Shown here: piece by piece, positions 5,235 to 55,240 of the stretch
How the letters are laid out: each line of letters begins with the position of its first letter
Numbering within the stretch: the first letter of the stretch is position 1
Assembly: GCA_965263045.1 (NCBI GenBank)
Contig: CBDHGK010000041.1
Location: 1,909,514 to 1,973,513, forward strand
Direction of reading: 5' to 3'
Origin: Terriglobia bacterium
GTDB taxonomy: Bacteria > Acidobacteriota > Terriglobia > 20CM-2-55-15
Length of the DNA: 64,000 bases
Program-made: the position numbers and the translations under genes
Notes under the pieces: generated by a model
Databases searched by the model: none
What the model was told of the DNA's origin: nothing
The model's input: only the letters and a program-made list of their open reading frames with translations

Positions 5235-5763
5235 ATGTCCAATGCCCATCTCCTCAGCCTAACGGGAACATTATGCCTGTTGGTTGTCACGTTGATCAGT
5301 ATGCCGGCCTCCGGTCAAACCACTGATTTTTCAGGGGAATGGGCCGAGCGGAGTCACGAGGACAACTGGAGCCGCCGGGGGGGGCCGTGCCCGTCTCCCC
5401 AGTGTGGGGGACCCGCCCTGGGCGACTACCTTGGATTCGCGCTCACGGACGCGGGTCGGATGAGAGCCGATACCGCCGATGCATCGGAATGGGGACTGCC
5501 CGAATTCCAGTGCAGGCCGCATCCGGTCCCCTACGTCTGGCGGGCGGCGGGAAATCTGCGAATTAATAAGGAAATCGATCCCGTGTCGCGCCAGCTCGTG
5601 GCCTACCACATCAACTGGGTGCGGTCTTTGGACAGGACGATCTACATGGACGGACGCCCGCACCCGCCTGAGTACGCGGCCTACACCTGGGAAGGTTTTT
5701 CGACAGGACGATGGGACGGGAACACCCTGGTCGTGACGACGACCCACCTTAAAGAGGGTTATC
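5235..5763 (+). pseudogene. secreted protein family X, paralog A, 5' fragment (interrupted by IS256-family copy 1)
   Basis: Signal peptide. Sequence FSGEW ... GRWDGNTLVVTTTHLKEGY runs into the IS end at 5764. The reading frame resumes at 7205 after the IS. Confidence 0.6.
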
Positions 5764-7204
5764 GAGTCAAGCCCATTCTTAGTTGAAACTCTCCACGGCT
5801 CACGATGGGTCATGCAACCTTCTTCTTCGATCTCGTCGACGTCTTCGCCTCAATTTTCAGCTCTCGCTGGAGGGCTTCGCGGAGCTTTGGAAGATGACGG
5901 TAGCCGATCACCTTCCTCAGGCGCGGTTCGATGTCGATGAGCGCCGTCGCCAACCAGCGTTGCCGCTGACTCGAGTTCTTCCAATGATCGACCTTCGCAC
6001 ACCTTTCCTCGACAAGGGCATTGACCGATTCCAGGCAATTCGTCGTCTTGAACGAACGGCCCAAGACCCCGTACACGCCGAGCCGATGCAACGTGAGGGT
6101 CTCTTCCAGGCCTTCCTCAAGGCTCGCAGCCCCCGATTGGTTTCGCTCCTCGAGCTCTCCATGGAGCTCTCCGAGCGCCGCCCGAGCTTCGTCGTACTCC
6201 GGGCGCTCGTAGGCCCGCTGCAGCCGGCGTCGCCACACGGCTTGCTCGGTCTTCGATAGGTATCTCACGACGTTCTCGCGTTTGTGCCATTGGCAGCGTT
6301 GGACCAGGGCTCGATTCCTGAATGCCTTCTTGACCGCCGCCCGCAGACCTTTGCCGCCGTCGACAATCACCAGCACGCCTTCAGAGATGTCCAGGCCCCG
6401 CTCCATCAACGAACGGAGAAACGGAGTCAGCACTTGCTCGTTCTCCGTGTCGGTCTCCACGAAGCCCAAGAAGCGTTTGTCGCCCGAAAGCGTGACGCCC
6501 AGGGCCACTACCATCAGGGCGTCGGCAAACGCCTTCCCGTCCAGGAAGATCGCCACGACGTCCTCGCCACTCAGATCCCGCTCCTGCATCTCCCGAAGTT
6601 TCGCGGCACTCGCCTGGACGAATCCTCGAGACACCGTCGAACTCGACAGTCCGATCGCTCCCGGAATCGCTTCAGCGGCCGATTCATAGTTCCGGCAGGA
6701 GATCCCATACAGCACACGTCTGAGCAGTAGCTCGTTCACCGCGCCACCCGGACTGAGTTCCTCGTAGGTCCGAAGCGGAATCTCCCCGCCCGCCACGCTG
6801 CGCACTCGAGGCACCCGAACCGGCACCCGCTGGCCACCCAGCCCCACGGTCCCCGGATTGCTCCCGTGTCGCCGGCCCCGCAACGCCGCCTCCTTTCGTG
6901 CGTATCGCTCACCCGCCAACGACTTCACTTCCTCGTCGAGCAACTCCTCCACGTGCATCAACCCCAGTGGGATCAACGCCCGAATCATCTCCACCTTCGA
7001 GTCCAATTCCAGTCCCGAGTATTCCTCCCGGCTCAGGACCTCGACCTCACCCAGCACACGCGACTTCTTGCGTTTCTTTACCGAACGTAACAGACTCCTC
7101 ATCTCGGCTCCTTTCTCTTACAGGCTTGATGTTGTTTCTTCCAATACCATCAAACCATGGGGTTTGGAGCCGTTTCAATTTCCAACTAAGATTGGCACAC
7201 ATTC
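5764..7204 (-). mobile_element. IS256-family insertion sequence, copy 1 (1441 bp) with 8-bp TSD gggttatc (5756-5763 and 7205-7212)
   Basis: Identical to the copies at 9818-11258 and 53800-55240. Imperfect ~38-bp terminal inverted repeats GAGTCAAGCCCATTCTTAGTTGAAAC / GAATGTGTGCCAATCTTAGTTGGAAA. Flanked by a direct repeat. Confidence 0.9.
5810..7102 (-). CDS. IS256-family (mutator-type) transposase, 430 aa
   Basis: CQWHKREN motif near the C-terminus, typical of IS256/Transposase_mut. Three identical copies in the window. Confidence 0.9.
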   Translation of the reverse strand: MRSLLRSVKKRKKSRVLGEVEVLSREEYSGLELDSKVEMIRALIPLGLMHVEELLDEEVKSLAGERYARKEAALRGRRHGSNPGTVGLGGQRVPVRVPRVRSVAGGEIPLRTYEELSPGGAVNELLLRRVLYGISCRNYESAAEAIPGAIGLSSSTVSRGFVQASAAKLREMQERDLSGEDVVAIFLDGKAFADALMVVALGVTLSGDKRFLGFVETDTENEQVLTPFLRSLMERGLDISEGVLVIVDGGKGLRAAVKKAFRNRALVQRCQWHKRENVVRYLSKTEQAVWRRRLQRAYERPEYDEARAALGELHGELEERNQSGAASLEEGLEETLTLHRLGVYGVLGRSFKTTNCLESVNALVEERCAKVDHWKNSSQRQRWLATALIDIEPRLRKVIGYRHLPKLREALQRELKIEAKTSTRSKKKVA

Positions 7205-7580
7205 GGGTTATCTGCGGCGCAACGGTGTCAAATTCACCGACCAGGCCACGGTCACCGAATACCTCACCCGGCATGGTGACATCCTCACGGTCGTTGCGAT
7301 CGTAGAAGATCCCGTCTACCTGGCCGAACCCTGGGTTTTTTCGGTGAGCTTCGTGCAGGATACACACACGGAGTTGATTTACTATCCGTGCACAGTTGTT
7401 GAGGGCATCAATATCTCTACCGAAGTGCCGCACTACCTGCCCGGCGAGAACCCCTTTCTCACCGACTGGACGTCCGAATTCGGTATACCGGAGGAGGCTG
7501 CGAGAGGCTATCGGGAAACCCTGTATCCCGATTACCAGATGAAAATAGATGCAATATCGTCTGACGGCGATGCGAACTGA
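7205..7580 (+). pseudogene. secreted protein family X, paralog A, 3' fragment
   Basis: In-frame continuation GYLRRNGV ... IVEDPVYLAEPWVFS, homologous to the C-terminal cores of the other family X members. Confidence 0.55.
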
Positions 7581-7604
7581 TCGATCAAACTGTTGGAGCA
7601 GGAG

Positions 7605-8741
7605 ATGACACTGAAAGCATTGAAGCCCGGGATGGTTCTGTGGGCCATACTGGCCACCGCCGCTTTCGCCTCGATTGCCGATTCCACAGAGTGGTCTCCT
7701 GCGGGGGAGAACCAGAACGCCAGCCGTTCCGAAATCGGTGTGCTGCCCGTGCGCGGGAACATCTACATGCTGGTGGGGGCGGGCGCCAATATCACTGTTT
7801 CGGTGGGCCGCGATGGGGTGTTGCTGGTCGACACCGGGTCCGGGCAGATGACGGACTCCGTTGTCGAAACGGTTAACCGACTGGTCACCGCTGTCACATC
7901 TGCACCCGTTCCCGCTTCGACCTGTGTGGGGCCGAATTGTTCCGGCGTCTCCAGCGTCTTTGGCTGGTCCGGTCCGGAATTCAATGGGACCACGATTGCA
8001 CGGGCGCCCGCCAAACCCATTCGTTACATCATCAACACCAGCATCGATGCTGAGCACACCGGGGGAAATCAAACCCTTCGCCTGGCCGGCGGGTCGCTGA
8101 CTGGAGGCAACGTTGCCGGAGCGATCTCGGATTCTGGGCAGGGTGCAGCGATTCTGGCCCACGACAACGTGCTCGTGAGGATGAGCGAGCAGGTCTATGA
8201 AGACGGTTCCATATCTGAAGACGCCTTGCCGACCGAGACGTATCTAAGCGACTCCTATAAGCTGAGCCATTTCTTCAACGGCGAGGGCGTGCAGATGTTT
8301 CACCTCCCTGCGGCCAATACAGATGGCGATTCGATGGTCTGGTTCCGCTATTCCGATGTCATCAGCGCAGGGGACGTATTTTCAACGACGAGCTATCCGG
8401 TGATCGACATCGAACGCGGCGGAACCATTCAAGGAGTCGTCAATGGATTGAACCGAATCCTTGATGTGGCCTACGCCGAGTTCAGATCGCAGGGTGGAAC
8501 GATGATTATTCCGGGTCACGGAAGACTCAGTGATGTTGGAGACGTTCCAAACTATCGCAACATGATGGCGATCATTCGCGACCGCATGCTGGACATGATT
8601 CAGAAAGGGATGACATTGGATGAAGTGAAGGCTGCGAAGCCAACCCTCGACTATGATGGGCGCTATGGTTCCACGAGCGGCCCCTGGACCACAGACATGT
8701 TTCTTGAGGCGGTGTACCGGAGCACTCCTCCGAGTCCGTAA
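7605..8741 (+). CDS. metallo-beta-lactamase-fold protein, divergent (non-canonical metal motif)
   Basis: VDTGSG and EHTGGN motifs in MBL-fold positions, but no HxHxDH. SD ggagcaggag precedes the ATG at 7605; the ORF-track start at 7593 is TTG. Confidence 0.5.
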   Translation: MTLKALKPGMVLWAILATAAFASIADSTEWSPAGENQNASRSEIGVLPVRGNIYMLVGAGANITVSVGRDGVLLVDTGSGQMTDSVVETVNRLVTAVTSAPVPASTCVGPNCSGVSSVFGWSGPEFNGTTIARAPAKPIRYIINTSIDAEHTGGNQTLRLAGGSLTGGNVAGAISDSGQGAAILAHDNVLVRMSEQVYEDGSISEDALPTETYLSDSYKLSHFFNGEGVQMFHLPAANTDGDSMVWFRYSDVISAGDVFSTTSYPVIDIERGGTIQGVVNGLNRILDVAYAEFRSQGGTMIIPGHGRLSDVGDVPNYRNMMAIIRDRMLDMIQKGMTLDEVKAAKPTLDYDGRYGSTSGPWTTDMFLEAVYRSTPPSP

Positions 8742-8825: not shown

Positions 8826-9221
8826 ATGAGCGTTAGATTAACTCCGATTCTGGTCGCACTGTTTCTGTTCCAGATGACGGCCTACGGCCACCACTCCCTG
8901 GGGGCGACCTACGATCAGCGATCGGAAGTCACACTTGAAGGGACACTCGTCCGGTTTCTGTTCCGTAATCCGCACGCCTTCGTGCACGTTGAGGCCCCAG
9001 ACGCTGATGGTGCGATGCAGCGGTGGGCGGTGGAATGGGGCGGCGCGGCCCAGCTCACGGGCCAAGGCGTGACCCGAAACACGTTCAAGATCGGAGATCA
9101 TGTGATCATCACGGGGAATCCATCCCGCACCATCACGGACCACAGAGTGAAAATGAACACGCTCTACCGGACTGAAGATGGGTTCGGATGGGGCACTCGC
9201 CCGGGTGAAGTCGTCGAATAA
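8826..9221 (+). CDS. small secreted protein with His-His mature N-terminus (HH/NPH family), paralog 1
   Basis: 21-aa signal peptide ending AYG, then HHSLGATYD, then NPH. Paralogs at 31177-31593 and 34587-34994. Confidence 0.6.
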   Translation: MSVRLTPILVALFLFQMTAYGHHSLGATYDQRSEVTLEGTLVRFLFRNPHAFVHVEAPDADGAMQRWAVEWGGAAQLTGQGVTRNTFKIGDHVIITGNPSRTITDHRVKMNTLYRTEDGFGWGTRPGEVVE

Positions 9222-9285: not shown

Positions 9286-9817
9286 ATGAACACTAGAAGA
9301 CTGTGGATACGCGTCTCGACATCGGCGGTCCTTGCGGCGTGCCTCGTAACGACCCACGCTTTCGACGTCCAGGCGCAGAACCGTGGGGGTGGCGGCGCCC
9401 GCCCGGGTCCGGGAAGCCGCTTCGATACCGCCGAGGCGGGGGCACCGATCGATCTGGTTGGATCCTGGGTGTCGGTGGTCAGCGAAGACTGGCGCGTCCG
9501 CATGGTGACCCCGCCCCGGGGCTACTACGAATCGGTTCCACTCAATCCGGAAGGCCGCCGGGTCGCCGATTCCTGGGATCCGGAAGAAGATGAAGCCAAC
9601 GGCCAGGCATGCAAAGCCTATGGCGCCGCAGCCATTATGCGGGTGCCCGGTCACCTCCGCATCCGGTGGGAAGATCCGAACACCCTGCGGATGGATACCG
9701 ATGCCGGCATCCAGACACGTCTGTTTCACCTTTCCCCTTCAACGCCTGGTGAACTGTCCTGGCAAGGACATTCCCTTGCGGAATGGGAGTATGCCAACAC
9801 AGCTCCGGGCGATCCGT
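9286..9817 (+). pseudogene. secreted protein family X, paralog B, 5' fragment (interrupted by IS256-family copy 2)
   Basis: Signal peptide. Sequence GSWVSV ... IRWEDPNTLRMDTDA. The stop codon is created inside the IS terminus. Confidence 0.6.
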
Positions 9818-11258
9818 GAATGTGTGCCAATCTTAGTTGGAAATTGAAACGGCTCCAAACCCCATGGTTTGATGGTATTGGAAGAAACAACATCAAGCCT
9901 GTAAGAGAAAGGAGCCGAGATGAGGAGTCTGTTACGTTCGGTAAAGAAACGCAAGAAGTCGCGTGTGCTGGGTGAGGTCGAGGTCCTGAGCCGGGAGGAA
10001 TACTCGGGACTGGAATTGGACTCGAAGGTGGAGATGATTCGGGCGTTGATCCCACTGGGGTTGATGCACGTGGAGGAGTTGCTCGACGAGGAAGTGAAGT
10101 CGTTGGCGGGTGAGCGATACGCACGAAAGGAGGCGGCGTTGCGGGGCCGGCGACACGGGAGCAATCCGGGGACCGTGGGGCTGGGTGGCCAGCGGGTGCC
10201 GGTTCGGGTGCCTCGAGTGCGCAGCGTGGCGGGCGGGGAGATTCCGCTTCGGACCTACGAGGAACTCAGTCCGGGTGGCGCGGTGAACGAGCTACTGCTC
10301 AGACGTGTGCTGTATGGGATCTCCTGCCGGAACTATGAATCGGCCGCTGAAGCGATTCCGGGAGCGATCGGACTGTCGAGTTCGACGGTGTCTCGAGGAT
10401 TCGTCCAGGCGAGTGCCGCGAAACTTCGGGAGATGCAGGAGCGGGATTTGAGTGGCGAGGACGTCGTGGCGATCTTCCTGGACGGGAAGGCGTTTGCCGA
10501 CGCCCTGATGGTAGTGGCCCTGGGCGTCACGCTTTCGGGCGACAAACGCTTCTTGGGCTTCGTGGAGACCGACACGGAGAACGAGCAAGTGCTGACTCCG
10601 TTTCTCCGTTCGTTGATGGAGCGGGGCCTGGACATCTCTGAAGGCGTGCTGGTGATTGTCGACGGCGGCAAAGGTCTGCGGGCGGCGGTCAAGAAGGCAT
10701 TCAGGAATCGAGCCCTGGTCCAACGCTGCCAATGGCACAAACGCGAGAACGTCGTGAGATACCTATCGAAGACCGAGCAAGCCGTGTGGCGACGCCGGCT
10801 GCAGCGGGCCTACGAGCGCCCGGAGTACGACGAAGCTCGGGCGGCGCTCGGAGAGCTCCATGGAGAGCTCGAGGAGCGAAACCAATCGGGGGCTGCGAGC
10901 CTTGAGGAAGGCCTGGAAGAGACCCTCACGTTGCATCGGCTCGGCGTGTACGGGGTCTTGGGCCGTTCGTTCAAGACGACGAATTGCCTGGAATCGGTCA
11001 ATGCCCTTGTCGAGGAAAGGTGTGCGAAGGTCGATCATTGGAAGAACTCGAGTCAGCGGCAACGCTGGTTGGCGACGGCGCTCATCGACATCGAACCGCG
11101 CCTGAGGAAGGTGATCGGCTACCGTCATCTTCCAAAGCTCCGCGAAGCCCTCCAGCGAGAGCTGAAAATTGAGGCGAAGACGTCGACGAGATCGAAGAAG
11201 AAGGTTGCATGACCCATCGTGAGCCGTGGAGAGTTTCAACTAAGAATGGGCTTGACTC
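9818..11258 (+). mobile_element. IS256-family insertion sequence, copy 2 (1441 bp) with 8-bp TSD cgatccgt (9810-9817 and 11259-11266)
   Basis: Identical sequence to copies 1 and 3, in the opposite orientation to copy 1. Confidence 0.9.
9920..11212 (+). CDS. IS256-family transposase, 430 aa
   Basis: Protein identical to 5810-7102. Confidence 0.9.
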   Translation: MRSLLRSVKKRKKSRVLGEVEVLSREEYSGLELDSKVEMIRALIPLGLMHVEELLDEEVKSLAGERYARKEAALRGRRHGSNPGTVGLGGQRVPVRVPRVRSVAGGEIPLRTYEELSPGGAVNELLLRRVLYGISCRNYESAAEAIPGAIGLSSSTVSRGFVQASAAKLREMQERDLSGEDVVAIFLDGKAFADALMVVALGVTLSGDKRFLGFVETDTENEQVLTPFLRSLMERGLDISEGVLVIVDGGKGLRAAVKKAFRNRALVQRCQWHKRENVVRYLSKTEQAVWRRRLQRAYERPEYDEARAALGELHGELEERNQSGAASLEEGLEETLTLHRLGVYGVLGRSFKTTNCLESVNALVEERCAKVDHWKNSSQRQRWLATALIDIEPRLRKVIGYRHLPKLREALQRELKIEAKTSTRSKKKVA

Positions 11259-11523
11259 CGATCCGTTACGGGGAAATCTGAAGGCCGTGACAACGAGCTT
11301 GCGGGCGGGATACCTGCGTAAGAACGGGGTTCCCTACAGTGAAAACAGCATTGTCACAGAGTATTTCGACCTGATCACCGGGCCCTCCGGTGAGGAATGG
11401 CTCGTTGTTTTGTCCGAGGTTACCGACCCCTTGTACCTGGTCGCCCCGTTCATTACGAGTACGCAGTTCAAGAGGCTTCCCGACGACACCGAGTGGAATC
11501 CGACGCCCTGCTCAGCCCGATGA
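11259..11523 (+). pseudogene. secreted protein family X, paralog B, 3' fragment
   Basis: In-frame DPLRGN ... AGYLRKNGV ... VTDPLYLVAPF, homologous to the paralog A 3' fragment. Confidence 0.55.
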
Positions 11524-12333: not shown

Positions 12334-14066
12334 CCGCATAGATCACCAATCGACGCGTGATTGCGATTTTGCGTAAAAGAACCCTGGGTGGGCGCGAGAT
12401 GGTGTGGGGGGAGCGTCTCAGGGTGAATTGACGAGTTTTTGGCGATGTGAGAAGCGGATTTTCGTGCTCAATAGAGCGTTGACGATCGCGATCAGACACA
12501 CCTCGGCTCGGACTGGGTAAGCGAATCGATTTCAGGGACGAAGCCGCAGCGTCGGTGTCAGCATCGCAGTGGCATTGTTTGTAGGTTGCGGACAACGGCG
12601 GCATAGACCTCGGCGTAAGGACAGGCTTCAGCCATCGACACCCAGACGTTTCGGACCGTGAACCGGATGCGGGCACCGATCTTGAGCAGCTTCAGCCGGA
12701 TCGTGCCGCATTGAGCGCGCGCCAGTTCGGTGCCCTGGAGCCCGAGTCGACGCAGGGCCTGCATGATCATGTAGGCGGCCGAAGACAGATACAGTCGGAG
12801 TTGATTGGCGCGCATGGTGGCCGCGCTGGTGCGGTCGGCAAACAGATCCAGTTGTTGCTCTTTGATCCGGTTCTCCATGTCGCCGCGCGCACAGTAGAGA
12901 TCTTCATATAGCGCACGGGCCTCCCAACGTTGCGGTGTGAGGGAGGTGACGATGAATCGGGGATTGGCGCCCTTGGCCAGAACCTCGGCCTTGCCCACGA
13001 CGCGCCGTTGCTGGCTCCAACTGTCTCGTGTGCGATAGCGGAAGTCCTTAAATATCCGTGCCGATTTACCGGTGGATTCAAACTCCGATTTCGCCTGAGC
13101 CATGGATTCAGCGATGACCTCCTGGAGTCGCTCGTTCTTGGCCAATCCCACCACGTAATCCACCTGGTGGGATTCACACCAGGTCAATAAATCATCTCTG
13201 CAAAAACCCGAGTCGCCACGGACGATGATCGACACATCCGGCCAGCTCTTCCGGATCTGTCCGATGATGCGGGTCAGCTCCTCAACCGATCCGGCCGCGC
13301 CATCGATGTTGGAGCGTCGCAATCGGGCGCACAGCAGATGCTCACCCGAGAAGATATACAACGGCAAATAACAGTAGTTGCCGTAATAGCCATGAAAGAA
13401 TCGTCCCTCCTGTTGCCCGTGGATCGGATCGTCGGTGGCATCGAGGTCCAGAATGATTTCTTCAGGCGCCGATTCATAGGCTGCGATGAATGCATCGACC
13501 ATCCAGCGGTCAATCTGGTCGGCATCCATCGCAATTTTCTTGTATCGTTCCTCCGCCCCCACTTCGGCACCGGTCAACTCCAGCCGATTCAGCGTGCACT
13601 TGCCCGCCAGCGCCTTTCCCCGGTCGCTGGCTTGCCGCCGGTTGCCTCCCAGCGGATCGGCCTTATCGATGGCCACGGCGAGCATCGGATCGGTGCGTAG
13701 TTGGTCGTGATCGTTCAGGTCTTCATATCCCAGACACAGGCCATACACCCGTTGCCCAATCAATTCCTTCACCGTGTGCTCGATCAATCGCGGGTCCCGA
13801 TGATCGGCGAAACATTCGGCAAGTCCCCCGACCAGTCCGGTTCGTTTTTCGACTTCCCTCAACAGCAGGACACCCGCGTCGGATGTGATCTTCCCTCCGT
13901 CGAATCGAGCCTTCACTTTTCGTTGATTAAGTCCGTGAAATTCGAACGTCGTTTGGTTACACTCTGTCGTCATAAGGGCCGCCTTTGTTTGGTTGCTAAA
14001 ACGTCTTCGACAAACGCTTTATGCCAAACAGGGCGGCCTTTTCTGGTCCATCTGGTGATTTATGCG
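12334..14066 (-). mobile_element. IS1380-family insertion sequence (~1733 bp) with 6-bp direct repeat gctaac (12328-12333 and 14067-14072)
   Basis: Terminal inverted repeats CCGCATAGATCACCA / CCGCATAAATCACCA. Carries a 471-aa DDE transposase. Inserted into the tandem repeat array. Confidence 0.7.
12558..13973 (-). CDS. IS1380-family transposase, 471 aa
   Basis: N-terminal FDGGKITSDAGVLLLREVE motif and overall length typical of the IS1380 family. Confidence 0.8.
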   Translation of the reverse strand: MTTECNQTTFEFHGLNQRKVKARFDGGKITSDAGVLLLREVEKRTGLVGGLAECFADHRDPRLIEHTVKELIGQRVYGLCLGYEDLNDHDQLRTDPMLAVAIDKADPLGGNRRQASDRGKALAGKCTLNRLELTGAEVGAEERYKKIAMDADQIDRWMVDAFIAAYESAPEEIILDLDATDDPIHGQQEGRFFHGYYGNYCYLPLYIFSGEHLLCARLRRSNIDGAAGSVEELTRIIGQIRKSWPDVSIIVRGDSGFCRDDLLTWCESHQVDYVVGLAKNERLQEVIAESMAQAKSEFESTGKSARIFKDFRYRTRDSWSQQRRVVGKAEVLAKGANPRFIVTSLTPQRWEARALYEDLYCARGDMENRIKEQQLDLFADRTSAATMRANQLRLYLSSAAYMIMQALRRLGLQGTELARAQCGTIRLKLLKIGARIRFTVRNVWVSMAEACPYAEVYAAVVRNLQTMPLRC

Positions 14067-21531: not shown

Positions 21532-22691
21532 GTGTAGTCCGTCACAGTTAATGTAACTTATTCAGCTTTCCTACGTCTGAGTATATATGAGGAGAGCACC
21601 GACGATTAAATTGGACATTCCTGTGCGGAAGGAACTGGAGCGACTGAGCCGAAGCCGCAGTGTGGCGGTCCGGTTGGCGGAACGATCTCGAATTGTCTTG
21701 CTGGCCGCCGGGGGTCTGGACAATCAGGAGATCGCTGCCAAGTTGGACATCACTCGTCAAAAGGCCGGACGTTGGCGCGATCGTTTCGTTGAAGATGGCC
21801 TCGGGGGAATCGAAAAGGACGCTTCCCGCAGTGGACGGATTCCCTCGATCGGCCGCCGGAAGCGGGCCCGGATCGTGAAGAAGACGGTCGAAGGGAAGCC
21901 TCCGAACGCCACGCACTGGAGCCGGTCCTTGATGGCCAGGGCAACCGGCGTCAGCGAGTCCACGGTAGGGAGAATCTGGCGGGCTCATGGCTTGAAGCCT
22001 CATCTGGCACGCACCTTCAAACTTTCCAACGACAAACAATTTGTCGAGAAGTTGGAGGATGTGGTCGGTTTGTATCTGAACCCTCCGGAAAACGCCATTG
22101 TTTTGTCCTGCGATGAGAAGAGCCAGATGCAGGCCCTGGACCGCACGCAACCCGGGTTACCTCTGAAGAAGGGGCGGTGCGGCACCCTCACCCACGACTA
22201 CAAACGCAACGGGACGACCACGATGTTCGCCGCGCTCAATACGCTGGACGGCTCGATTATCGGGACCTGTATGCCGAAGCATCGTCATCAGGAATGGATC
22301 CGGTTTCTCAATCAGATCAAACGTTCCGTGCCGAAAGACAAACAGATCCATATCATTTGCGACAACTACGCCACGCACAAACATCAGAAAGTCGTCAACT
22401 GGTTGAAGCGCAACACGCGCTTTCATGTGCACTTCACACCGACCAGTGCATCCTGGCTGAACATGGTCGAACGCTTCTTCCGGGATCTTTCCGAACAACG
22501 GCTTCGGCGCGGGGTTTTCCATTCGGTTCCTGAGCTAATCCAGGCCGTGGAGGAATATGTCGGGGGTCACAATCAGAACCCGAAGCCCTTCATTTGGACC
22601 GCAACGGCTTCCGATATTCTTGAAAAAGTTCAACGTGCCCGAAAGAAGCTCGATAAGTTACAGTCTGTTTGACGGGGGCCACTAGCTGAAG
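21532..22691 (+). mobile_element. IS630-family (Tc1/mariner-like) insertion sequence, 1160 bp, TA target duplication (21530-21531 and 22692-22693)
   Basis: Terminal inverted repeats GTGTAGTCCGTCACAGTTAATGTAACTTAT / GTGGCCCCCGTCAAACAGACTGTAACTTAT. Excision restores AAG CTA GCT GAA (K L A E) in the host gene. Confidence 0.85.
21587..22672 (+). CDS. IS630-family DDE transposase, 361 aa
   Basis: N-terminal HTH followed by a DDE_3-like core, of the kind annotated as IS630 transposases. Confidence 0.85.
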   Translation: MRRAPTIKLDIPVRKELERLSRSRSVAVRLAERSRIVLLAAGGLDNQEIAAKLDITRQKAGRWRDRFVEDGLGGIEKDASRSGRIPSIGRRKRARIVKKTVEGKPPNATHWSRSLMARATGVSESTVGRIWRAHGLKPHLARTFKLSNDKQFVEKLEDVVGLYLNPPENAIVLSCDEKSQMQALDRTQPGLPLKKGRCGTLTHDYKRNGTTTMFAALNTLDGSIIGTCMPKHRHQEWIRFLNQIKRSVPKDKQIHIICDNYATHKHQKVVNWLKRNTRFHVHFTPTSASWLNMVERFFRDLSEQRLRRGVFHSVPELIQAVEEYVGGHNQNPKPFIWTATASDILEKVQRARKKLDKLQSV

Positions 22692-28985: not shown

Positions 28986-30098
28986 ATGAAATGGACCAGT
29001 TTCGCAGCAGTGGGCGCACTCCTTGTCCTGTCGGTGTCAACGGTGGCCGCCGCGGGTCAGGAACTGCGGACACCGTGGGGCGACCCGGACCTGCAGGGGA
29101 TCTGGAGTAATCCCTACGTGACACCGCTGGAACGGCCGGAAGAGTACGGCACCCGGGAGTTCCTGACGGAAGAAGAAATCCTGATCGCCGAGTCGGAATT
29201 GCTGGAACAGTCCCAACTGCCGGGTCGTGACAGCCGGAGTGCGGCAGGGACGGAAAGAGATGTGGCCCTCGCCTACAACGACCACTGGTTCGGTGATCCT
29301 TCCATGGACCGGGGCGCGCGCACGTCACAGATCATCGACCCGCCGGACGGGAGAATTCCACCGCTGACCCCCGAGGCACAGACCAGGATCGGAGCGCAGA
29401 GAGAGTATCTCCAGGCACTGCTCCAGGGTACTTCCGGGGGGCGGCCGGGACCGATCTCACCGCGGCGATCGGAACCGCCTCCCGACTACAATCTCGACCG
29501 AATGAATCGCACGGACGGTCCCGAGGACCGGAGCGGCCCTGAGCGGTGTTTCGGTTTCAGTCTGCCGGTGTTGCTCGAGTCCGGGACTTTCGGAGGGGTC
29601 GCGCGAATTGTTCAGTCACCCGGAAGCGTGGGCATCAACTACGATATGGGTCAGGGCCAGGGCTTCAGCCGTGTGATCCCCATCACGGATCGCCCACACC
29701 TTTCCCCACATATGCGGCAGCGCTACGGCGATGCCCGCGGCCGGTGGGAAGGAGACACGCTTGTCGTGGACGTGACCAATTTCCAGCAACAGACGGATTT
29801 CGAGGGTTCCCGCGAAAATCTGCATCTGATCGAACGCTACAGAAGGATCGATGCCGATACGCTGGCGTTCCAGGTCACAATAGAGGACCCGACGACGTTT
29901 ACAGCACCGTTCACCGCGGTCCAGGAGCTGACGAAGAACAGCGAACAGGCCAATCAGGTTTACGAGGGTGGTTGCCATGAGGGTAACTACGGCATGGTCG
30001 GCATGCTGGTGAACACGCGTGCCGCGGAAAGGGCCTTTGCGGAAGGGCGGGGTCCGGATCCGGCGACACAGGACAACGCCACCGGTGGCGGCGGGTAG
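28986..30098 (+). CDS. secreted protein family X, paralog 1 (intact)
   Basis: SD ggagga and ATG at 28986. Signal peptide. Sequence DLQGIWSNP ... GRWEGDTLVVDVTNF ... IERYRRIDADTLAFQVTIEDPTTFTAPFT. Confidence 0.6.
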   Translation: MKWTSFAAVGALLVLSVSTVAAAGQELRTPWGDPDLQGIWSNPYVTPLERPEEYGTREFLTEEEILIAESELLEQSQLPGRDSRSAAGTERDVALAYNDHWFGDPSMDRGARTSQIIDPPDGRIPPLTPEAQTRIGAQREYLQALLQGTSGGRPGPISPRRSEPPPDYNLDRMNRTDGPEDRSGPERCFGFSLPVLLESGTFGGVARIVQSPGSVGINYDMGQGQGFSRVIPITDRPHLSPHMRQRYGDARGRWEGDTLVVDVTNFQQQTDFEGSRENLHLIERYRRIDADTLAFQVTIEDPTTFTAPFTAVQELTKNSEQANQVYEGGCHEGNYGMVGMLVNTRAAERAFAEGRGPDPATQDNATGGGG

Positions 30099-30114: not shown

Positions 30115-30681
30115 ATGTTTCTTATCGCTTTCCTCGAATCTCTCGCCGAGTCTCCGTGGAGCATCGGGCTCCATGAGTCGCGATACGCCTACCCCCTCAT
30201 CGAATCGGTTCATGTCTGGGCGCTGTTTTTGTTTGTCGGTCTCGTGGTCGTGTTTGACCTGCGTCTCGTCGGCTGGATTATGCCGCGCGTGGGGGTGCGG
30301 GAGGTTTACCGGCGACTGATACCGTGGACCATAGCCGGCTTCGTCATCATGGTTATCAGCGGAGCAATGCTCTTTTCCGCGATACCCCTGCGCTCCTATC
30401 AGAACATTTTCTTCCGCGTTAAAATGATCTTCCTGGTGCTGGCCGGTTTGAATGTCTGGGTCTTCCACTCGGGAATCTACCGGCGTGTGGCCACATGGAG
30501 CCTGGAGGCGGTGCCTCCCAGGTCAGCCCGGATTGCCGGAGCTCTTTCCCTGGTGCTGTGGGTCGGCATCATCTTTTCAGGAAGAATGATTGCGTACAAC
30601 TGGTTTGACTGTGACCGACAGCCACAACCGGCCATCATCAATTATCTGACCAACTGCGTGCCGGTCGAGTCCGAGTACTGA
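30115..30681 (+). CDS. 4-TM membrane protein, paralog a
   Basis: ESLAESPWSIGLHESRYAYPLIESVHVWAL ... DLRLVG. Stop overlaps the start of the next paralog. Confidence 0.55.
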   Translation: MFLIAFLESLAESPWSIGLHESRYAYPLIESVHVWALFLFVGLVVVFDLRLVGWIMPRVGVREVYRRLIPWTIAGFVIMVISGAMLFSAIPLRSYQNIFFRVKMIFLVLAGLNVWVFHSGIYRRVATWSLEAVPPRSARIAGALSLVLWVGIIFSGRMIAYNWFDCDRQPQPAIINYLTNCVPVESEY

Positions 30682-31154
30682 TGTCGCTGCTGCCGTTCTT
30701 CGAGTGGTGCGAACAATTGCCCATTGGCGAGGCGATTCGGAATTCACTCTGGCTGTTTCCCGTAATCGAAGCCTTTCACCTGGTGGGTCTGGGCGTGCTG
30801 GGAGGCGCCGTGTTGCTGCTCGATCTGCGGCTGCTGGGCCTGGGTCTGAAGGGCCAGCCGGCGGACGAGGTCGCCAGGGCCGCCGAACCCTGGCTGCTGG
30901 GCAGTCTCGGGTTGATGCTCGCCTCCGGCTTTCCGCTATTTCTCTCGGAAGCGATCCGGTGCTACTACAGCACGGCCTTCTGGGTGAAGATGACTTCGCT
31001 GCTGCTGGTGATCCTGTTTACATTCACGGTGCGGCGTCGGGTCGCGCACGGGGCAGCATCGATACCCAAGCTGGAATGCCAGATTGCCGCCCTGGTCTCG
31101 CTGGCCTTGTGGGCAGGTGTGGGATGGGGCGGACGCTGGATCGGGTTTTCCTGA
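30681..31154 (+). CDS. 4-TM membrane protein, paralog b (tandem duplicate of 30115-30681)
   Basis: Shares EA.H..GL ... LLDLRLLG with paralog a. ATGA overlap with the upstream gene. Confidence 0.55.
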   Translation: MSLLPFFEWCEQLPIGEAIRNSLWLFPVIEAFHLVGLGVLGGAVLLLDLRLLGLGLKGQPADEVARAAEPWLLGSLGLMLASGFPLFLSEAIRCYYSTAFWVKMTSLLLVILFTFTVRRRVAHGAASIPKLECQIAALVSLALWAGVGWGGRWIGFS

Positions 31155-31176: not shown

Positions 31177-31593
31177 TTACGGGCGTTCGACCGGTGCGCC
31201 TGTTCCCGACGATCCTAAGAATAACGTTCTTCCGTCGGGTAGGGTCAGGTCCCTGCCGTTCGCTCTCCGTGAGCCATCCTTCGCCCGGTAGCCATCAACG
31301 ACGATCTCGGTACCCGCTACGAGAGAGTCTCTCGTAAAGCCGCGCCGGTACAACACATTGGGGGTGCCGGCTTCAACGGCCCATCGTTCCATGGTCCCAT
31401 CAGGGAGTTCGACTTCGACGTGGATCCACGCGTGGGGATTGGTCCATTGCATCCGCACGACGGTGGCCGTGAAGTGGACCGGGTTGTTGGCGTCAAATTC
31501 GGCCGCGAAGGCGTGATGGGCCGACGCGGGCGCTGCGGCCAGAATCAGAATCGCGCCAACAATCGCGACGGTGATGGCTGATGTAGCTGACAT
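31177..31593 (-). CDS. small secreted HH/NPH-family protein, paralog 2
   Basis: SD aaggag and ATG at 31593. Signal peptide ending PASA, then HHAFAAEFD ... WTNPHAW. Confidence 0.6.
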   Translation of the reverse strand: MSATSAITVAIVGAILILAAAPASAHHAFAAEFDANNPVHFTATVVRMQWTNPHAWIHVEVELPDGTMERWAVEAGTPNVLYRRGFTRDSLVAGTEIVVDGYRAKDGSRRANGRDLTLPDGRTLFLGSSGTGAPVERP

Positions 31594-31655
31594 TGGGTGC
31601 GGTCTCCTTTTCATATTCACTCAGTTTAACTCGATTCACCGGGTTTTGCCGGACC

Positions 31656-32666
31656 TCAGGGTTCAACCGGCGGGTTGCCCGACCAATGTATTTCATAGAC
31701 ATCTTCACCCGGCGGTACCTTGCGCGTGATGTCGACATCCATCGTCCGGCCTTCCCAGCGCGTCACAAGGGGTTCGCTGCGCAGGTGGCCGTAGATGGTT
31801 TCCTCGACGTGTTCGAAGCATCGGAAGTCCAGGAGCTGGGCGTCGGGTTCCAGCCGGCGGTAGAGCGGCAGACTGATGGTCCACGGTCGCGTGAACACCT
31901 TGGAGTCTTCAATCGTTGCTTGGTAAAGGATCGCATCTCGGCTGATGGGAGTGTAGCGTTCCTCAACTTCCAGCGCGTCGCTGTGAAAATTACCGGACCT
32001 GTCGAACCAGGTGTAGGGCGTGAAGTTCATAACATCGACAACCAGCGTGTCGCCCTCCCAGCGCCCGAGGGAGTATCCCATGAAGGCCTCGCCCGGATAG
32101 GGGTCGACGGTGTCAAGATTGATCGTTCTCTGGGCATTGGCAAACTCGAAAACCATCATGACTTTGTTCGTACTCTGAACAATCTGGAACGGATAGGGCA
32201 GATACATCGCACGCGGCACTCCCGGCATATAGCATTTGATTTCCGGGTCGCGGTCCAGCCAGTGGACTTGATTATCGATCTTCCGCTCCGCCGCCCAGGG
32301 TTGGTAGGGAATCTCGTCGCCTTCGACCACTCCCATGCCCGGCGGGGCCCAACCAATGGTGCCGAGCGCAACGACCGGGGCCGCCAGCACCGGTACATCG
32401 GGGTACACGCCGGCCTGGGCCACCAACGGCCGTGCGTCGTGGGTCTGAAGGTCCCAGTTGGCCGTGCTGTGGGTCTGCCATATCCCACTGAAGTCGGGTT
32501 TGCCGTCTGCGGTGCGTACGATTGATGACGCGCCCGCTGAGTCCATGTTGAGGCCGGACATCGGCGACGTCAGCATCCACATCAGCGATGCCCCACCCAC
32601 GATGATGGCGGTCACGATCACGATTATTGCGTCTCTGAATCTATTTTGCATGGATCGAGTGACCAC
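31656..32666 (-). CDS. secreted protein family X, paralog 2 (intact)
   Basis: DFSGIWQT ... GRWEGDTLVVDVMNF ... EERYTPISRDAILYQATIEDSKVFTRPWT. GTG at 32666 or ATG at 32651. Confidence 0.6.
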   Translation of the reverse strand: MVTRSMQNRFRDAIIVIVTAIIVGGASLMWMLTSPMSGLNMDSAGASSIVRTADGKPDFSGIWQTHSTANWDLQTHDARPLVAQAGVYPDVPVLAAPVVALGTIGWAPPGMGVVEGDEIPYQPWAAERKIDNQVHWLDRDPEIKCYMPGVPRAMYLPYPFQIVQSTNKVMMVFEFANAQRTINLDTVDPYPGEAFMGYSLGRWEGDTLVVDVMNFTPYTWFDRSGNFHSDALEVEERYTPISRDAILYQATIEDSKVFTRPWTISLPLYRRLEPDAQLLDFRCFEHVEETIYGHLRSEPLVTRWEGRTMDVDITRKVPPGEDVYEIHWSGNPPVEP

Positions 32667-33192: not shown

Positions 33193-33600
33193 TTGCACCG
33201 ATCGACAAGTTTTCAACGACTTGCAATAGTATCTGCCATCGGATTGATGTTGCTGGTGGCGTGTCGCGCCCCGTTTCAGGTGCGGGTGACGGATCTGCGT
33301 GGTGGGGCCCGACCTTATTTCTATGAAGGTGAGTCCCTGAAAATGCACGTCCACTGGGGTCAGGAAGCCAGGGACATGGCCGTAATCTGTCAAGTGCTTG
33401 ACACGTATCGGGGAGAAACAAAGTGGCAGGGGCGTTCCACCGTGCCGAACGTGGAAACCGGGTCCCTCGAGGTCTTGTCGTTTGATCCGCCGCTCCCGCT
33501 GAACGGCCAACTCGGGTTGACCCGGGGTGGGTATCGATGGATATGCGAACTCGAAGACGCCGCGCGGTCGTCGGTCTACTTCGACATCATTGAGCGATAG
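33193..33600 (+). CDS. hypothetical lipoprotein
   Basis: TTG start. Signal peptide with LLVAC lipobox. No recognizable homology. Confidence 0.35.
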   Translation: MHRSTSFQRLAIVSAIGLMLLVACRAPFQVRVTDLRGGARPYFYEGESLKMHVHWGQEARDMAVICQVLDTYRGETKWQGRSTVPNVETGSLEVLSFDPPLPLNGQLGLTRGGYRWICELEDAARSSVYFDIIER

Positions 33601-33711: not shown

Positions 33712-34527
33712 TCACGGGTTCTCGGTCTCATCGAAAACTTCTCGGAAATACAGGGCATCCTGCGTATCCACACAGATCGATTCCCGAATGCGGTCTTCTG
33801 GAGGCCGTCTCCGCAATGTCACCGTTTTTGACCACGGGCCGGAAAGGACGTTCGGGTCTTCGACCGTGGCCTCATACACCAGGGTGTTTGCGTCGCTCAT
33901 GTGATAGCGCTCGACGACATGTAGATCCTCAGTGTGGAACGTCCCGAGTCTGTGAATCCAGGTCTCATCGTTAAAGCCGATGACATCGACAACGAGGGTG
34001 TCTCCGTCCCATTCGGCCACCGAGTCTCCCATGTAGGTTGGAAACCAATCATCGGGGTGGTCGCGTCCGTCTGTTGGAATGATCCGGAATCGGTGTTCGG
34101 CTTCGTAAAGAAATATTACTTCTCCCGGAATCTGAACGATTCGGAGCGGATGTGGATTGCCCGTCTGACGGGGGATGCCGCGGGGAATGCAGCGTAGCAT
34201 CGGATCGTCGGCCTCGGTGAATGCCCGCACACGGTCCATCACTTCCGGCCGGTAGGGAAGACCTCCGCCTGGATTTGCGAGCCTGTTCGCCGAGGACCGC
34301 TCTTCTTGTTCGAGAGTGAAGTTCGATATGTCCAGCATGTTGGTCTGCCAGATGCCCGAAAAATCGACCCGGCCATCGGGGGCACGGGGTATCAATTCAG
34401 ATGCGTTGTCGGTCGCGACGCGTTCGTTCCCGTTCTGCGGCAAGACAGCGGCAATGGCCCCGGGCAGCAGGACCAGAGCCGTCAACGCCAGCGTCGTGAC
34501 GGCGGCGACCAGACGGCGATGGGTCAT
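33712..34527 (-). CDS. secreted protein family X, paralog 3 (intact)
   Basis: DFSGIWQT ... AEWDGDTLVVDVIGF ... VERYHMSDANTLVYEATVEDPNVLSGPWS. Confidence 0.6.
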   Translation of the reverse strand: MTHRRLVAAVTTLALTALVLLPGAIAAVLPQNGNERVATDNASELIPRAPDGRVDFSGIWQTNMLDISNFTLEQEERSSANRLANPGGGLPYRPEVMDRVRAFTEADDPMLRCIPRGIPRQTGNPHPLRIVQIPGEVIFLYEAEHRFRIIPTDGRDHPDDWFPTYMGDSVAEWDGDTLVVDVIGFNDETWIHRLGTFHTEDLHVVERYHMSDANTLVYEATVEDPNVLSGPWSKTVTLRRRPPEDRIRESICVDTQDALYFREVFDETENP

Positions 34528-34586: not shown

Positions 34587-34994
34587 CTATTGGTTTTCGC
34601 TTTCTGAACTGGCGCCGATCGGAAGAATCCGTCCGTCGGGCAGCGTCATCCGGTTGCCGCCCGCAACCGGCCGGGCTCCGACTCGAGCATGCCAGCCCGT
34701 GACGGTCACGGTGTCTCCCGGACTCACCGTGTTCCGGGACCAGCCCTGCCGGACCATCATCGTTGGAGGATATCCTTCAAAGCCCCAGGTGACGACTTCG
34801 CCGTTTGGCCCGGCAACGTCGACGTAGAAGTACATGTGCGGGTTTTTCCAGTCTACCTTGTTGATCACGCCCGTCACGGTGAAGGGCTGGTCCTTGTCGA
34901 AGATCGCTGCAAACGAGTGATGGGCACGTGCCGGCGTTTCACACAGGACCAGGACGCATACGATGACCAGAGTGCCAGAAATACGTTTCAACAT
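34587..34994 (-). CDS. small secreted HH/NPH-family protein, paralog 3
   Basis: SD aaggag. Signal peptide ending ARA, then HHSFAAIFD ... WKNPHMY. Confidence 0.6.
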   Translation of the reverse strand: MLKRISGTLVIVCVLVLCETPARAHHSFAAIFDKDQPFTVTGVINKVDWKNPHMYFYVDVAGPNGEVVTWGFEGYPPTMMVRQGWSRNTVSPGDTVTVTGWHARVGARPVAGGNRMTLPDGRILPIGASSESENQ

Positions 34995-53232: not shown

Positions 53233-53799
53233 ATGACCCACTCCACTGACTCCAGCCGCAGAGCCTTCGAAAAATACAAGACCGACGTAGGCCGGAAGGC
53301 GGATCGAAGCCACGGTGCCCCTGATGGGCGCACTCCGGTGCCGGTCCGATCCCTGCGCCAGTTGTTTTTCGAATTCTGGCGACTCGTTGGGCGCGAACGC
53401 GGACCGGTTGTGTTGGCCCTCGCCGCGCTGACGCTGGCGACCGTTCTGGGCCTCATTCCGCCCGCTGCCACCAAGTTCATCGTCGATTATGTCCTCGGTG
53501 AGCAGCCCATACCCGAACGGTGGCAATCGTATCTGCAGCTGCCAGAGGATCCCTTCCGGCTTCTGATATTAACCATTGTCGCCGTCACGCTCGTTGCGGG
53601 CCTGCGAATCGCTGTCCACACCTGGAGCGACTGGCAGGCGACGCGATCCGCTAAACGCTTACACCTGTCAGTTCGTTTGAAGGTATTTGCACACGCCGTG
53701 CGGCTGCCACTGCACCGGGTTGATGAGCTGAAGTCCGGTGGTGCGGCGAGCATCCTGCGCCAGGACGCCGGCAGCGTCGGCGACTTGATTCACGGCATG
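53233..53799 (+). pseudogene. ABC exporter (MsbA-like, fused TMD-NBD), 5' fragment interrupted by IS256-family copy 3
   Basis: TM helices. Reading frame runs ... DLIHGM into the IS terminus. Confidence 0.7.
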
Positions 53800-55240
53800 G
53801 AGTCAAGCCCATTCTTAGTTGAAACTCTCCACGGCTCACGATGGGTCATGCAACCTTCTTCTTCGATCTCGTCGACGTCTTCGCCTCAATTTTCAGCTCT
53901 CGCTGGAGGGCTTCGCGGAGCTTTGGAAGATGACGGTAGCCGATCACCTTCCTCAGGCGCGGTTCGATGTCGATGAGCGCCGTCGCCAACCAGCGTTGCC
54001 GCTGACTCGAGTTCTTCCAATGATCGACCTTCGCACACCTTTCCTCGACAAGGGCATTGACCGATTCCAGGCAATTCGTCGTCTTGAACGAACGGCCCAA
54101 GACCCCGTACACGCCGAGCCGATGCAACGTGAGGGTCTCTTCCAGGCCTTCCTCAAGGCTCGCAGCCCCCGATTGGTTTCGCTCCTCGAGCTCTCCATGG
54201 AGCTCTCCGAGCGCCGCCCGAGCTTCGTCGTACTCCGGGCGCTCGTAGGCCCGCTGCAGCCGGCGTCGCCACACGGCTTGCTCGGTCTTCGATAGGTATC
54301 TCACGACGTTCTCGCGTTTGTGCCATTGGCAGCGTTGGACCAGGGCTCGATTCCTGAATGCCTTCTTGACCGCCGCCCGCAGACCTTTGCCGCCGTCGAC
54401 AATCACCAGCACGCCTTCAGAGATGTCCAGGCCCCGCTCCATCAACGAACGGAGAAACGGAGTCAGCACTTGCTCGTTCTCCGTGTCGGTCTCCACGAAG
54501 CCCAAGAAGCGTTTGTCGCCCGAAAGCGTGACGCCCAGGGCCACTACCATCAGGGCGTCGGCAAACGCCTTCCCGTCCAGGAAGATCGCCACGACGTCCT
54601 CGCCACTCAGATCCCGCTCCTGCATCTCCCGAAGTTTCGCGGCACTCGCCTGGACGAATCCTCGAGACACCGTCGAACTCGACAGTCCGATCGCTCCCGG
54701 AATCGCTTCAGCGGCCGATTCATAGTTCCGGCAGGAGATCCCATACAGCACACGTCTGAGCAGTAGCTCGTTCACCGCGCCACCCGGACTGAGTTCCTCG
54801 TAGGTCCGAAGCGGAATCTCCCCGCCCGCCACGCTGCGCACTCGAGGCACCCGAACCGGCACCCGCTGGCCACCCAGCCCCACGGTCCCCGGATTGCTCC
54901 CGTGTCGCCGGCCCCGCAACGCCGCCTCCTTTCGTGCGTATCGCTCACCCGCCAACGACTTCACTTCCTCGTCGAGCAACTCCTCCACGTGCATCAACCC
55001 CAGTGGGATCAACGCCCGAATCATCTCCACCTTCGAGTCCAATTCCAGTCCCGAGTATTCCTCCCGGCTCAGGACCTCGACCTCACCCAGCACACGCGAC
55101 TTCTTGCGTTTCTTTACCGAACGTAACAGACTCCTCATCTCGGCTCCTTTCTCTTACAGGCTTGATGTTGTTTCTTCCAATACCATCAAACCATGGGGTT
55201 TGGAGCCGTTTCAATTTCCAACTAAGATTGGCACACATTC
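53800..55240 (-). mobile_element. IS256-family insertion sequence, copy 3 (1441 bp) with 8-bp TSD acggcatg (53792-53799 and 55241-55248)
   Basis: Identical to copies 1 and 2. Direct orientation relative to copy 1. Confidence 0.9.
53846..55138 (-). CDS. IS256-family transposase, 430 aa
   Basis: Identical protein. Confidence 0.9.
   Translation of the reverse strand: MRSLLRSVKKRKKSRVLGEVEVLSREEYSGLELDSKVEMIRALIPLGLMHVEELLDEEVKSLAGERYARKEAALRGRRHGSNPGTVGLGGQRVPVRVPRVRSVAGGEIPLRTYEELSPGGAVNELLLRRVLYGISCRNYESAAEAIPGAIGLSSSTVSRGFVQASAAKLREMQERDLSGEDVVAIFLDGKAFADALMVVALGVTLSGDKRFLGFVETDTENEQVLTPFLRSLMERGLDISEGVLVIVDGGKGLRAAVKKAFRNRALVQRCQWHKRENVVRYLSKTEQAVWRRRLQRAYERPEYDEARAALGELHGELEERNQSGAASLEEGLEETLTLHRLGVYGVLGRSFKTTNCLESVNALVEERCAKVDHWKNSSQRQRWLATALIDIEPRLRKVIGYRHLPKLREALQRELKIEAKTSTRSKKKVA

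Follow-up and report, generated by a model that had tools for sequence, protein, structure and literature searches.

Three DUF6152 paralogs with a predicted N-terminal His-His: a candidate metal site on a predicted OB-fold and its secreted partner

A 64,000-nucleotide stretch of contig CBDHGK010000041.1 from a Terriglobia bacterium (hereafter the window) encodes three small exported paralogs, termed here A, B and C, whose mature forms are predicted to begin with two adjacent histidines (His1-His2). What purpose might such a terminus serve, and with which partner? An earlier note, made from the sequence alone, proposed a histidine-brace metal site and, by analogy with CopC and CopD, a copper relay to neighboring membrane proteins. 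All three open reading frames (ORFs) were confirmed where that note had placed them (Table 1), and their likeness to DUF6152, which it suggested with some hesitation, was borne out: the proteins score 96.3 (C), 108.8 (B) and 82.2 bits (A) against PF19649 (DUF6152), far above the gathering cut-off of 27. They are thus members of a Pfam family that carries no described function or structure, and full-text literature searches returned no paper on DUF6152, PF19649, or the membrane protein family DUF6644 (PF20349) considered below. The reading that we favor, while holding it tentatively, is that DUF6152 is the metal-bearing oligonucleotide/oligosaccharide-binding (OB)-fold subunit in a periplasmic complex of two parts, perhaps linked to redox chemistry, the other part being a second secreted family that we call X.

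Paralog C is preceded by a ribosome-binding site, AAGGAGA, a few bases 5' of its ATG. The signal peptides of A, B, and C are of the Sec type, with a basic n-region, a hydrophobic core, and small residues at positions −3 and −1. Cleavage sites were assigned by the −3/−1 rule together with the alignment, giving MLKRISGTLVIVCVLVLCETPARA/HHSFAAIFD for C, ...AILILAAAPASA/HHAFAAEFD for B (presequence end AAAPASA), and MSVRLTPILVALFLFQMTAYG/HHSLGATYD for A, where the slash marks predicted cleavage; by the same approach no better site was found elsewhere. The canonical signals, the Ala or Gly at −1, and the family alignment all agree with the assignment of His-His to predicted mature residues 1 and 2. 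The PF19649 profile itself begins just N-terminal of the AHH motif. In the alignment, N-P-H occupies mature positions 27–29 of all three proteins. The two consensus motifs proposed earlier hold in part: HHS[LF][GA]A.[FY]D retains its HH start throughout but B reads HHAF, and W.NPH retains NPH throughout but A has F.NPH.

A profile search of 1.84 billion cluster representatives returned 17,225 DUF6152 clusters at E ≤ 0.001, of which 10,519 remain at E ≤ 1e-10. Conservation was assessed in 153 sequences, comprising the best 150 representatives of 50%-identity clusters and the three window proteins, with a mean column identity of ~50%. His1 and His2 are each conserved in 97%, the few other entries at these positions being gaps or truncated or mis-started sequences, and the NPH motif is conserved at Asn27 (98%), Pro28 (100%), and His29 (100%); the near-invariance of these three histidines, which the earlier note had suggested checking by alignment, is therefore upheld. 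Also highly conserved are Asp9 (93%), Gly18 (98%), Trp25 (92%), Trp46 (99%), Glu49 (95%), and Gly60 (98%), while position −1 is Ala in 90% and Gly in 7%, and position −4 is Pro in 65%. Across a set of 269 family proteins, 261 carry HH after a presequence of median length 23 residues, with Ala or Gly at −1 in 98% and A, L, V, I, T, or S at −3 in 97% of these; P0269 is the sole full-length protein truly without HH. Homologs generally lacking the N-terminal His, named in the earlier note as grounds for dropping the idea, are thus not what the family presents. For comparison, His occurs at +1 in 2.6% of signal-peptide-cleaved proteins (PMC12537917). Export by the twin-arginine translocation (Tat) route was considered and rejected, twin-arginine motifs being rare (8/261) and mostly unconvincing.

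Judged from sequence, then, His would be mature residue 1 with a free α-amino group, as in a histidine brace. N-terminal-His metal-binding DUF families have precedents in several folds (PMC12537917): the signal-strapping families DUF4198 (Ni), DUF6702, Ang-1, and Ang-2 experimentally bind Cu or Ni, there are links to membrane permeases for some of them, and the sequence does not predict which metal will be bound (PMC12537917). Because other DUF families with a +1 His bind these metals, a metal-ligand role for His-His is reasonable, and the candidate site of the earlier note stands to that extent. DUF6152 resembles the signal-strapping families in being a DUF-type secreted bacterial family with a conserved +1 His, and differs in that those families are β-sandwiches, none of which has an X partner; it is not among the families named in the main text or supplements of that study (PMC12537917).

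The fold predicted for DUF6152 departs from the structural analogy first drawn. An AlphaFold2 (AF2) model of mature C, built with 63 aligned homologs (mean predicted local distance difference test score (pLDDT) 85.7; predicted template-modeling score (pTM) 0.79), is all-β, with a long bent β1 (residues 8–25), four more strands, and a short helix after strand 3. Because Foldseek matched this model to OB-fold domains only in the PDB (best E 5e-4, TM-scores ~0.5), including the lysyl-tRNA synthetase N-domain, RPA, SSB, and Stn1, DUF6152 is predicted to be a periplasmic OB-fold and not the Ig-like or cupredoxin-like sandwich of CopC, lytic polysaccharide monooxygenases (LPMOs), PmoB, and YcnI. Neither DUF6152 nor X has relatives in the PDB by sequence, whether single sequences or profiles were searched. 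DUF6152 shares with LPMO families AA9 and AA10, CopC, PmoB, and YcnI a predicted His at residue 1, a second invariant His, and a periplasmic or secreted location; it differs from them in its predicted OB barrel, as opposed to an Ig-like, cupredoxin-like, or FnIII-like sandwich, in showing no sequence similarity, and, compared with His-brace copper proteins, in its adjacent invariant His2 and an N-terminal arm that is not rigidly modeled. Pfam searches to E ≤ 10 gave no match to CopC (PF04234) or to LPMOs (AA10, PF03067, and relatives), and the analogy to CopC, LPMOs, and PmoB was accordingly not sustained.

The secondary structure of the model puts the NPH His in the β1–β2 turn, and Trp46 and Glu49 where β3 ends. 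A mutual-information analysis of 326 non-redundant family sequences recovered the β2–β3 register (pairs 30–50, 35–45, and 31–47), indicating that it detects real contacts, and this register brings Glu49 close to His29. Residue 3 couples most strongly with residue 26, beside NPH, the pair ranking sixth overall, a covariation that hints weakly at packing of the N-terminal arm on the NPH loop. CusF is a small periplasmic OB-fold Cu(I)/Ag(I) chaperone that binds its metal via His/Met/Met. Its β3 Trp aligned to DUF6152 Trp46 in a weak hhalign comparison against one CusF sequence. Homology to CusF was rejected, at an hhalign probability of 13.8% with that one sequence, and DUF6152 has no conserved Met.

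Turning to the partner, X comprises secreted proteins of ~270–400 residues, with a conserved Cys pair, a W-x-G-D-T-L-V-V-D motif, and several nearly invariant His, Asp, and Glu residues. Three window members, X1, X2, and X3, are mutually homologous by alignment; X1 shares an operon with C and X2 with B, and X1 has more than 5,800 homologs, none of them named or assigned a Pfam domain. Species-representative genomes were scanned and gave 593 DUF6152 loci, mostly in Acidobacteriota (Vicinamibacterales, Bryobacterales, and Terriglobia), with others in Gammaproteobacteria (e.g. Steroidobacteraceae) and some Alphaproteobacteria. Neighborhoods were sampled for 111 DUF6152 ORFs in 81 non-redundant loci. 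X was adjacent on the same strand or fused in 85 of the 111 (77%), lying immediately downstream in 57, immediately upstream in 24, and fused in 4; it was adjacent on the opposite strand in 8, absent from the vicinity at assessable loci in 16, and absent in 2 where the contig end was too near to judge. X, which the earlier note did not mention, is thus the general partner of DUF6152. Fusions of ~375 residues form at least 120 clusters at 90% identity and are laid out as signal peptide–AHH–DUF6152–linker–X; DUF6152 is always N-terminal, with His1 in 93/94 and His2 in 94/94. An AF2 model of one natural fusion (pLDDT 76, pTM 0.71) places a helical segment after the OB domain and then a β region of eight strands.

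So close an association with X raises the possibility of an intermolecular plug, in which His1-His2 would insert into X, or into a neighbor of the metallo-β-lactamase (MBL) fold, and complete or block its metal centre. This would be comparable to the tissue inhibitors of metalloproteinases, OB-fold proteins that coordinate the zinc of their target protease through an N-terminal amine and carbonyl. In favor of a plug, pairing with X looks obligate, every fusion leaves the N-terminus of DUF6152 free, and the arm is unstructured on its own in AF2 while being the most conserved segment; DUF6152 is likewise a predicted OB-fold, and the nearly invariant His, Asp, and Glu residues of X could belong to such a centre. 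MBL-fold genes, moreover, are fused to X-like domains in single proteins (L063:9100-11061 and L083:12730-14325) or adjoin them, as in the window, where one lies between an X-like gene and paralog A. We nevertheless regard the plug as quite unlikely. Residues 1–6 still have pLDDT <50 when X is present in the fusion model, 16 of the 111 DUF6152 genes have no X nearby, and His29, Asp9, Trp46, and Glu49 of the barrel are as invariant as His1 and His2. A site on DUF6152 itself explains this shared invariance more easily.

The membrane proteins beside paralog B underlie the relay first proposed, in which DUF6152 would be a periplasmic copper chaperone delivering to four-transmembrane (TM) proteins for import, as in CopC–CopD or YcnI–YcnJ. 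The two window genes, D1 and D2, are members of DUF6644 (PF20349), one scoring 96.3 and the other 32.5 bits against a gathering cut-off of 27; they are convergent with B, and each DUF6644 protein has four TM segments with one invariant His in TM1. From the DUF6644 side, sampled at 80 metagenome loci, linkage to DUF6152 is strong. DUF6644 always occurs as a tandem pair, DUF6152 is present at 48 of the 80 loci, and, of 22 loci whose flanks both reach 1.5 kb or more, 16 have it within that distance. The arrangement is convergent at 12 loci, as in the window, and at 4 it is a co-directional operon of two X genes, DUF6152, and the DUF6644 pair. This linkage, the convergent copy B, the conserved predicted N-terminal His, and the TM1 His all speak for a relay, as does the flexible arm, which resembles the 'anglerase' concept in which a permease bears an N-terminal-His domain (PMC12537917). 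DUF6644 is also like CopD and YcnJ in comprising small multi-TM proteins encoded beside a periplasmic N-terminal-His protein, and unlike them in its tandem pairing, its single invariant His per protein, and its frequent cotranscription with a CxxCH lipoprotein.

From the DUF6152 side, however, DUF6644 occurs at only 6 of the 81 loci. Among DUF6644-linked DUF6152 proteins, 42/44 read HHAF[GA]AEFD...NPH.W.H, defining an HHA subfamily to which B belongs, whereas C is of the HHS type and pairs with X only. DUF6644 is the partner of the HHA subfamily only, an accessory specific to that subfamily. Pfam searches of D1 and D2 to E ≤ 10 gave no CopD (PF05425) similarity, so that the CopD likeness proposed for these neighbors, which are also unlinked to C, was set aside. 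Further points against a relay are the predicted OB-fold where CopC has a β-sandwich, the occurrence of several paralogs per genome, unusual for a homeostasis chaperone, and the absence of any role for X. Copper-homeostasis genes are neither present in the window nor enriched in neighborhoods: CopA, CopB, CusABC, multicopper oxidases, and CopRS were not found, and no copper-homeostasis family appeared in a Pfam scan of 135 neighbors of DUF6152/X modules.

A gene often cotranscribed with this pair is as compatible with electron transfer as with metal import, or more so. It encodes a lipoprotein of ~140 residues with a C-terminal CxxCH that adjoins the pair in 21 of the 80 loci (L095, L098-L100, L109, L111, L116-L118, L122, L126, L127, L129, L131-L134, L136, L145, L163, and L164). 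In most of these the gene lies immediately 5' of the pair on the same strand, overlapping it or a few bases away, and the window has no copy. One of three proteins tested had a sub-threshold match to PF01322 (cytochrome c'), and the lipoprotein is probably a class II, cytochrome c'-like haem protein. A two-part complex is favored over a CopC/CopD-like system because the fold and families differ, DUF6644 is subfamily-specific and cytochrome-linked, and X is the universal partner; we give the relay only a slight chance.

A cultured carrier of the module was found on the megaplasmid NC_015583.1 of Novosphingobium sp. PP1Y (L165, positions 661251-673511, the module at about 664–668 kb), where X and DUF6152 on the minus strand are followed by two DUF6644 genes and a second DUF6152 gene on the plus strand; for this region the PLSDB table has no gene entries. 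In the downstream copy of DUF6152 the signal is Tat-like (RRAFLK), and QMPH replaces NPH. A plasmid nucleotide search gave no match, and a plasmid protein search gave one, to an unannotated Novosphingobium megaplasmid. The X partner, the fusions, and the links to DUF6644 and cytochromes are apparently not in the PF19649 entry.

We propose the following course for the putative metal-bearing subunit. Sec export and cleavage after Ala or Gly would expose His1-His2 on a short flexible arm, which may fold onto the barrel beside the W-x-N-P-H loop. A transition metal could then be ligated by His1, through its α-amino group and imidazole, and by His2 and His29, perhaps with Asp9 or Glu49 as well; such a site would resemble a histidine brace and would stand on a new scaffold. 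Once loaded with metal, the protein would act with X and, in some lineages, also with c-type cytochromes or the DUF6644 pair. Metal binding by DUF6152 is inferred, and so are which metal it would take, how the site would be arranged, and any activity in catalysis or transport.

Several observations support a metal site: the very strong conservation of three histidines and of Asp/Glu, the constant order of domains in fusions, the degeneration of second domains in tandem proteins, and one fusion to a metal-resistance domain. The last, P0265 (a cluster representative of 292 residues), joins DUF6152 C-terminally to PF13801 (Metal_resist, heavy-metal resistance/LTXXQ-type) above the gathering score, and is a hint of a metal connection, the single independent one. 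Tandem two-domain proteins numbered eight among the representatives. In four, the second domain retains an internal HHSY...YD although the NPH His is gone, the motif reading NPR, KPR, or FPN or having no NPH-like counterpart; the HH segment is missing from the remaining four, of which one retains DPH and three lack that His also. The full His1/His2/His29 set is therefore kept in none of the eight, a decay that fits a site requiring a free N-terminus, in a small sample. Together with the fusions, which keep HH free, this suggests that the N-terminal position of DUF6152 appears to matter.

As for redox, CxxCH ORFs are enriched near the module, with 19/239 within 600 bp and 15/509 farther away (odds ratio 2.8, Fisher p = 0.004), and a dihaem cytochrome c gene overlaps the start of the fused DUF6152–X gene at two loci (L048 and L084). 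The commonest families among the 135 neighbors were c-type cytochromes (5–6), pyrroloquinoline quinone (PQQ) dehydrogenases (4), and MBL folds (3). Taken together, the context points to a role in redox or metal hand-off rather than classical copper homeostasis.

A number of results weigh against the metal-bearing complex. The 135 neighbors are heterogeneous, and cytochromes make up only ~8% of adjacent ORFs. The window holds no Cu, Zn, or Ni homeostasis genes, its metal-related genes being two MBL-fold genes only. X itself gave no Pfam or NCBIfam match, no PDB-sequence profile match, and no significant Foldseek match in the PDB. The N-terminal 3–6 residues have pLDDT <50 in the models of both C and the natural fusion, and the residue 3–26 signal comes mostly from one clade, E3-N26 in fusion proteins, as seen in the contingency table. 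Finally, the internal HH of four tandem second domains may mean that HH has a role beyond the free amine.

A non-metal alternative would give His-His and the NPH His a part in acid-base catalysis, pH sensing, contact with a ligand or haem, or structural packing alone, DUF6152 then being a periplasmic OB-fold for an organic ligand or a protein. OB-folds usually bind oligonucleotides, oligosaccharides, or proteins, and the internal HH without a free amine and the lack of metal-homeostasis context in both neighborhoods and window accord with such a role. Against it stand the match of three invariant His plus Asp/Glu, with His at +1, to proven N-terminal-His metalloproteins (PMC12537917), the retention of the whole set in none of the eight second domains, and the fusion to PF13801. 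We consider this alternative unlikely, though it deserves some weight. A bolder form of the metal reading is, in our estimate, also doubtful: DUF6152 and X could constitute a new and widespread periplasmic oxidative or reductive enzyme system and not a chaperone, especially in soil Acidobacteriota, Steroidobacteraceae, and sphingomonads. In such an enzyme, His1-His2/His29 would form a brace-like Cu (or Fe or Ni) centre, the first on an OB scaffold, X would be a novel β-rich partner, and electrons would come from c-type cytochromes or the DUF6644 membrane pair.

N-terminal-His metal sites underlie LPMOs, CopC, particulate methane monooxygenase, and recently discovered Ni and Cu proteins, and new scaffolds of this kind have each opened new chemistry or metal-uptake biology. 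DUF6152 is a very large and environmentally important family, common among soil and marine bacteria, whose genomes often carry several copies. Were metal binding true, a functional class could be given to thousands of gene pairs now called 'hypothetical', and a brace-type site on an OB-fold that has an obligate, uncatalogued partner would add a new variety to a type of metal site already known. Handles for pursuing this are the invariant set (His1, His2, Asp9, His29, Trp46, and Glu49), the X partner with its fusions, the subfamily with membrane pair and cytochrome, and the cultured carrier Novosphingobium sp. PP1Y.

Table 1. Positions of the DUF6152 genes, their predicted parts, and associated features in the window
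Feature	Position	Strand	Description	Basis
DUF6152 paralog C	34587-34994	−	135 aa	ORF and ribosome-binding site; PF19649 E 1.2e-27
Paralog C signal peptide	34923-34994	−		predicted
Paralog C mature protein	34590-34922	−		predicted
His1-His2 codons of predicted mature C	34917-34922	−	CAT CAC	read from sequence
W25-K26-N27-P28-H29 loop of C	34836-34850	−	between β1 and β2	AF2 secondary structure
X1	33712-34527	−	271 aa; own signal peptide; directly downstream of C, same operon	no Pfam family
DUF6152 paralog B	31177-31620	−	147 aa as listed; predicted mature start HHAF at 31518	PF19649 E 1.5e-31
X2	31656-32666	−	336 aa; upstream of B, same operon	X1 paralog; X-profile E 1.5e-89
DUF6644 D1	~30115-30681	+	tandem with D2	PF20349 E 1.2e-07
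DUF6644 D2	30681-31154	+	tandem with D1	PF20349 E 2.7e-27
X3	28986-30098	+	listed from 28908; likely start Met 28986, from signal-peptide-like sequence	paralog alignment; X-profile E 1e-61
DUF6152 paralog A	8826-9221	+	131 aa; predicted mature start HHSL at 8889	PF19649 E 3e-23
MBL-fold protein	7593-8741	+	directly upstream of A	PF00753 E 4e-07
Split X-like gene	5235-7580	+	N-terminal part 5235-5760, C-terminal part 7205-7580	both halves match X profile
Second split X-like gene	9286-11523	+	downstream of A; N-terminal part 9286-9817, C-terminal part 11263-~11523	alignment; frame resumes past the insertion
Insertion sequence, in first split gene	5761-7204	−		PF00872
Insertion sequence, in second split gene	9818-11262	+		PF00872
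Insertion sequence, third copy	53797-55240	−		PF00872

Other genes of the window encode several transposases, an adenylate cyclase, PanB, a MutS-like protein, and cell-envelope proteins. Between the B/X2 and C/X1 operons lies a 135-residue ORF (33193-33600, plus strand) with a lipoprotein-like signal (…LLVAC) and no Pfam match. The MBL-fold protein encoded upstream of A has weak, sub-threshold similarity to TIGR04559 and 'quinoprotein relay system zinc metallohydrolase' models.

Paralog A is flanked by X-like genes, each of which is split by a copy of an insertion sequence (IS) with a Mutator/IS256-type transposase. At the first, the junctions were read and show the 8-bp target duplication GGGTTATC. 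A rearrangement around paralog A was considered and ruled out, the surroundings being explained by two independent IS insertions with target duplications. The window region is IS-rich, with three copies of this element and two other transposase genes, at 12558-13973 (minus strand) and 21587-22672 (plus strand), of the families DDE_Tnp_1_4 and DDE_3 with HTH. The three copies, of 1,444 bp, are 99.9–100% identical, and since each is flanked by an 8-bp target-site duplication, their near-identity suggests recent transposition.

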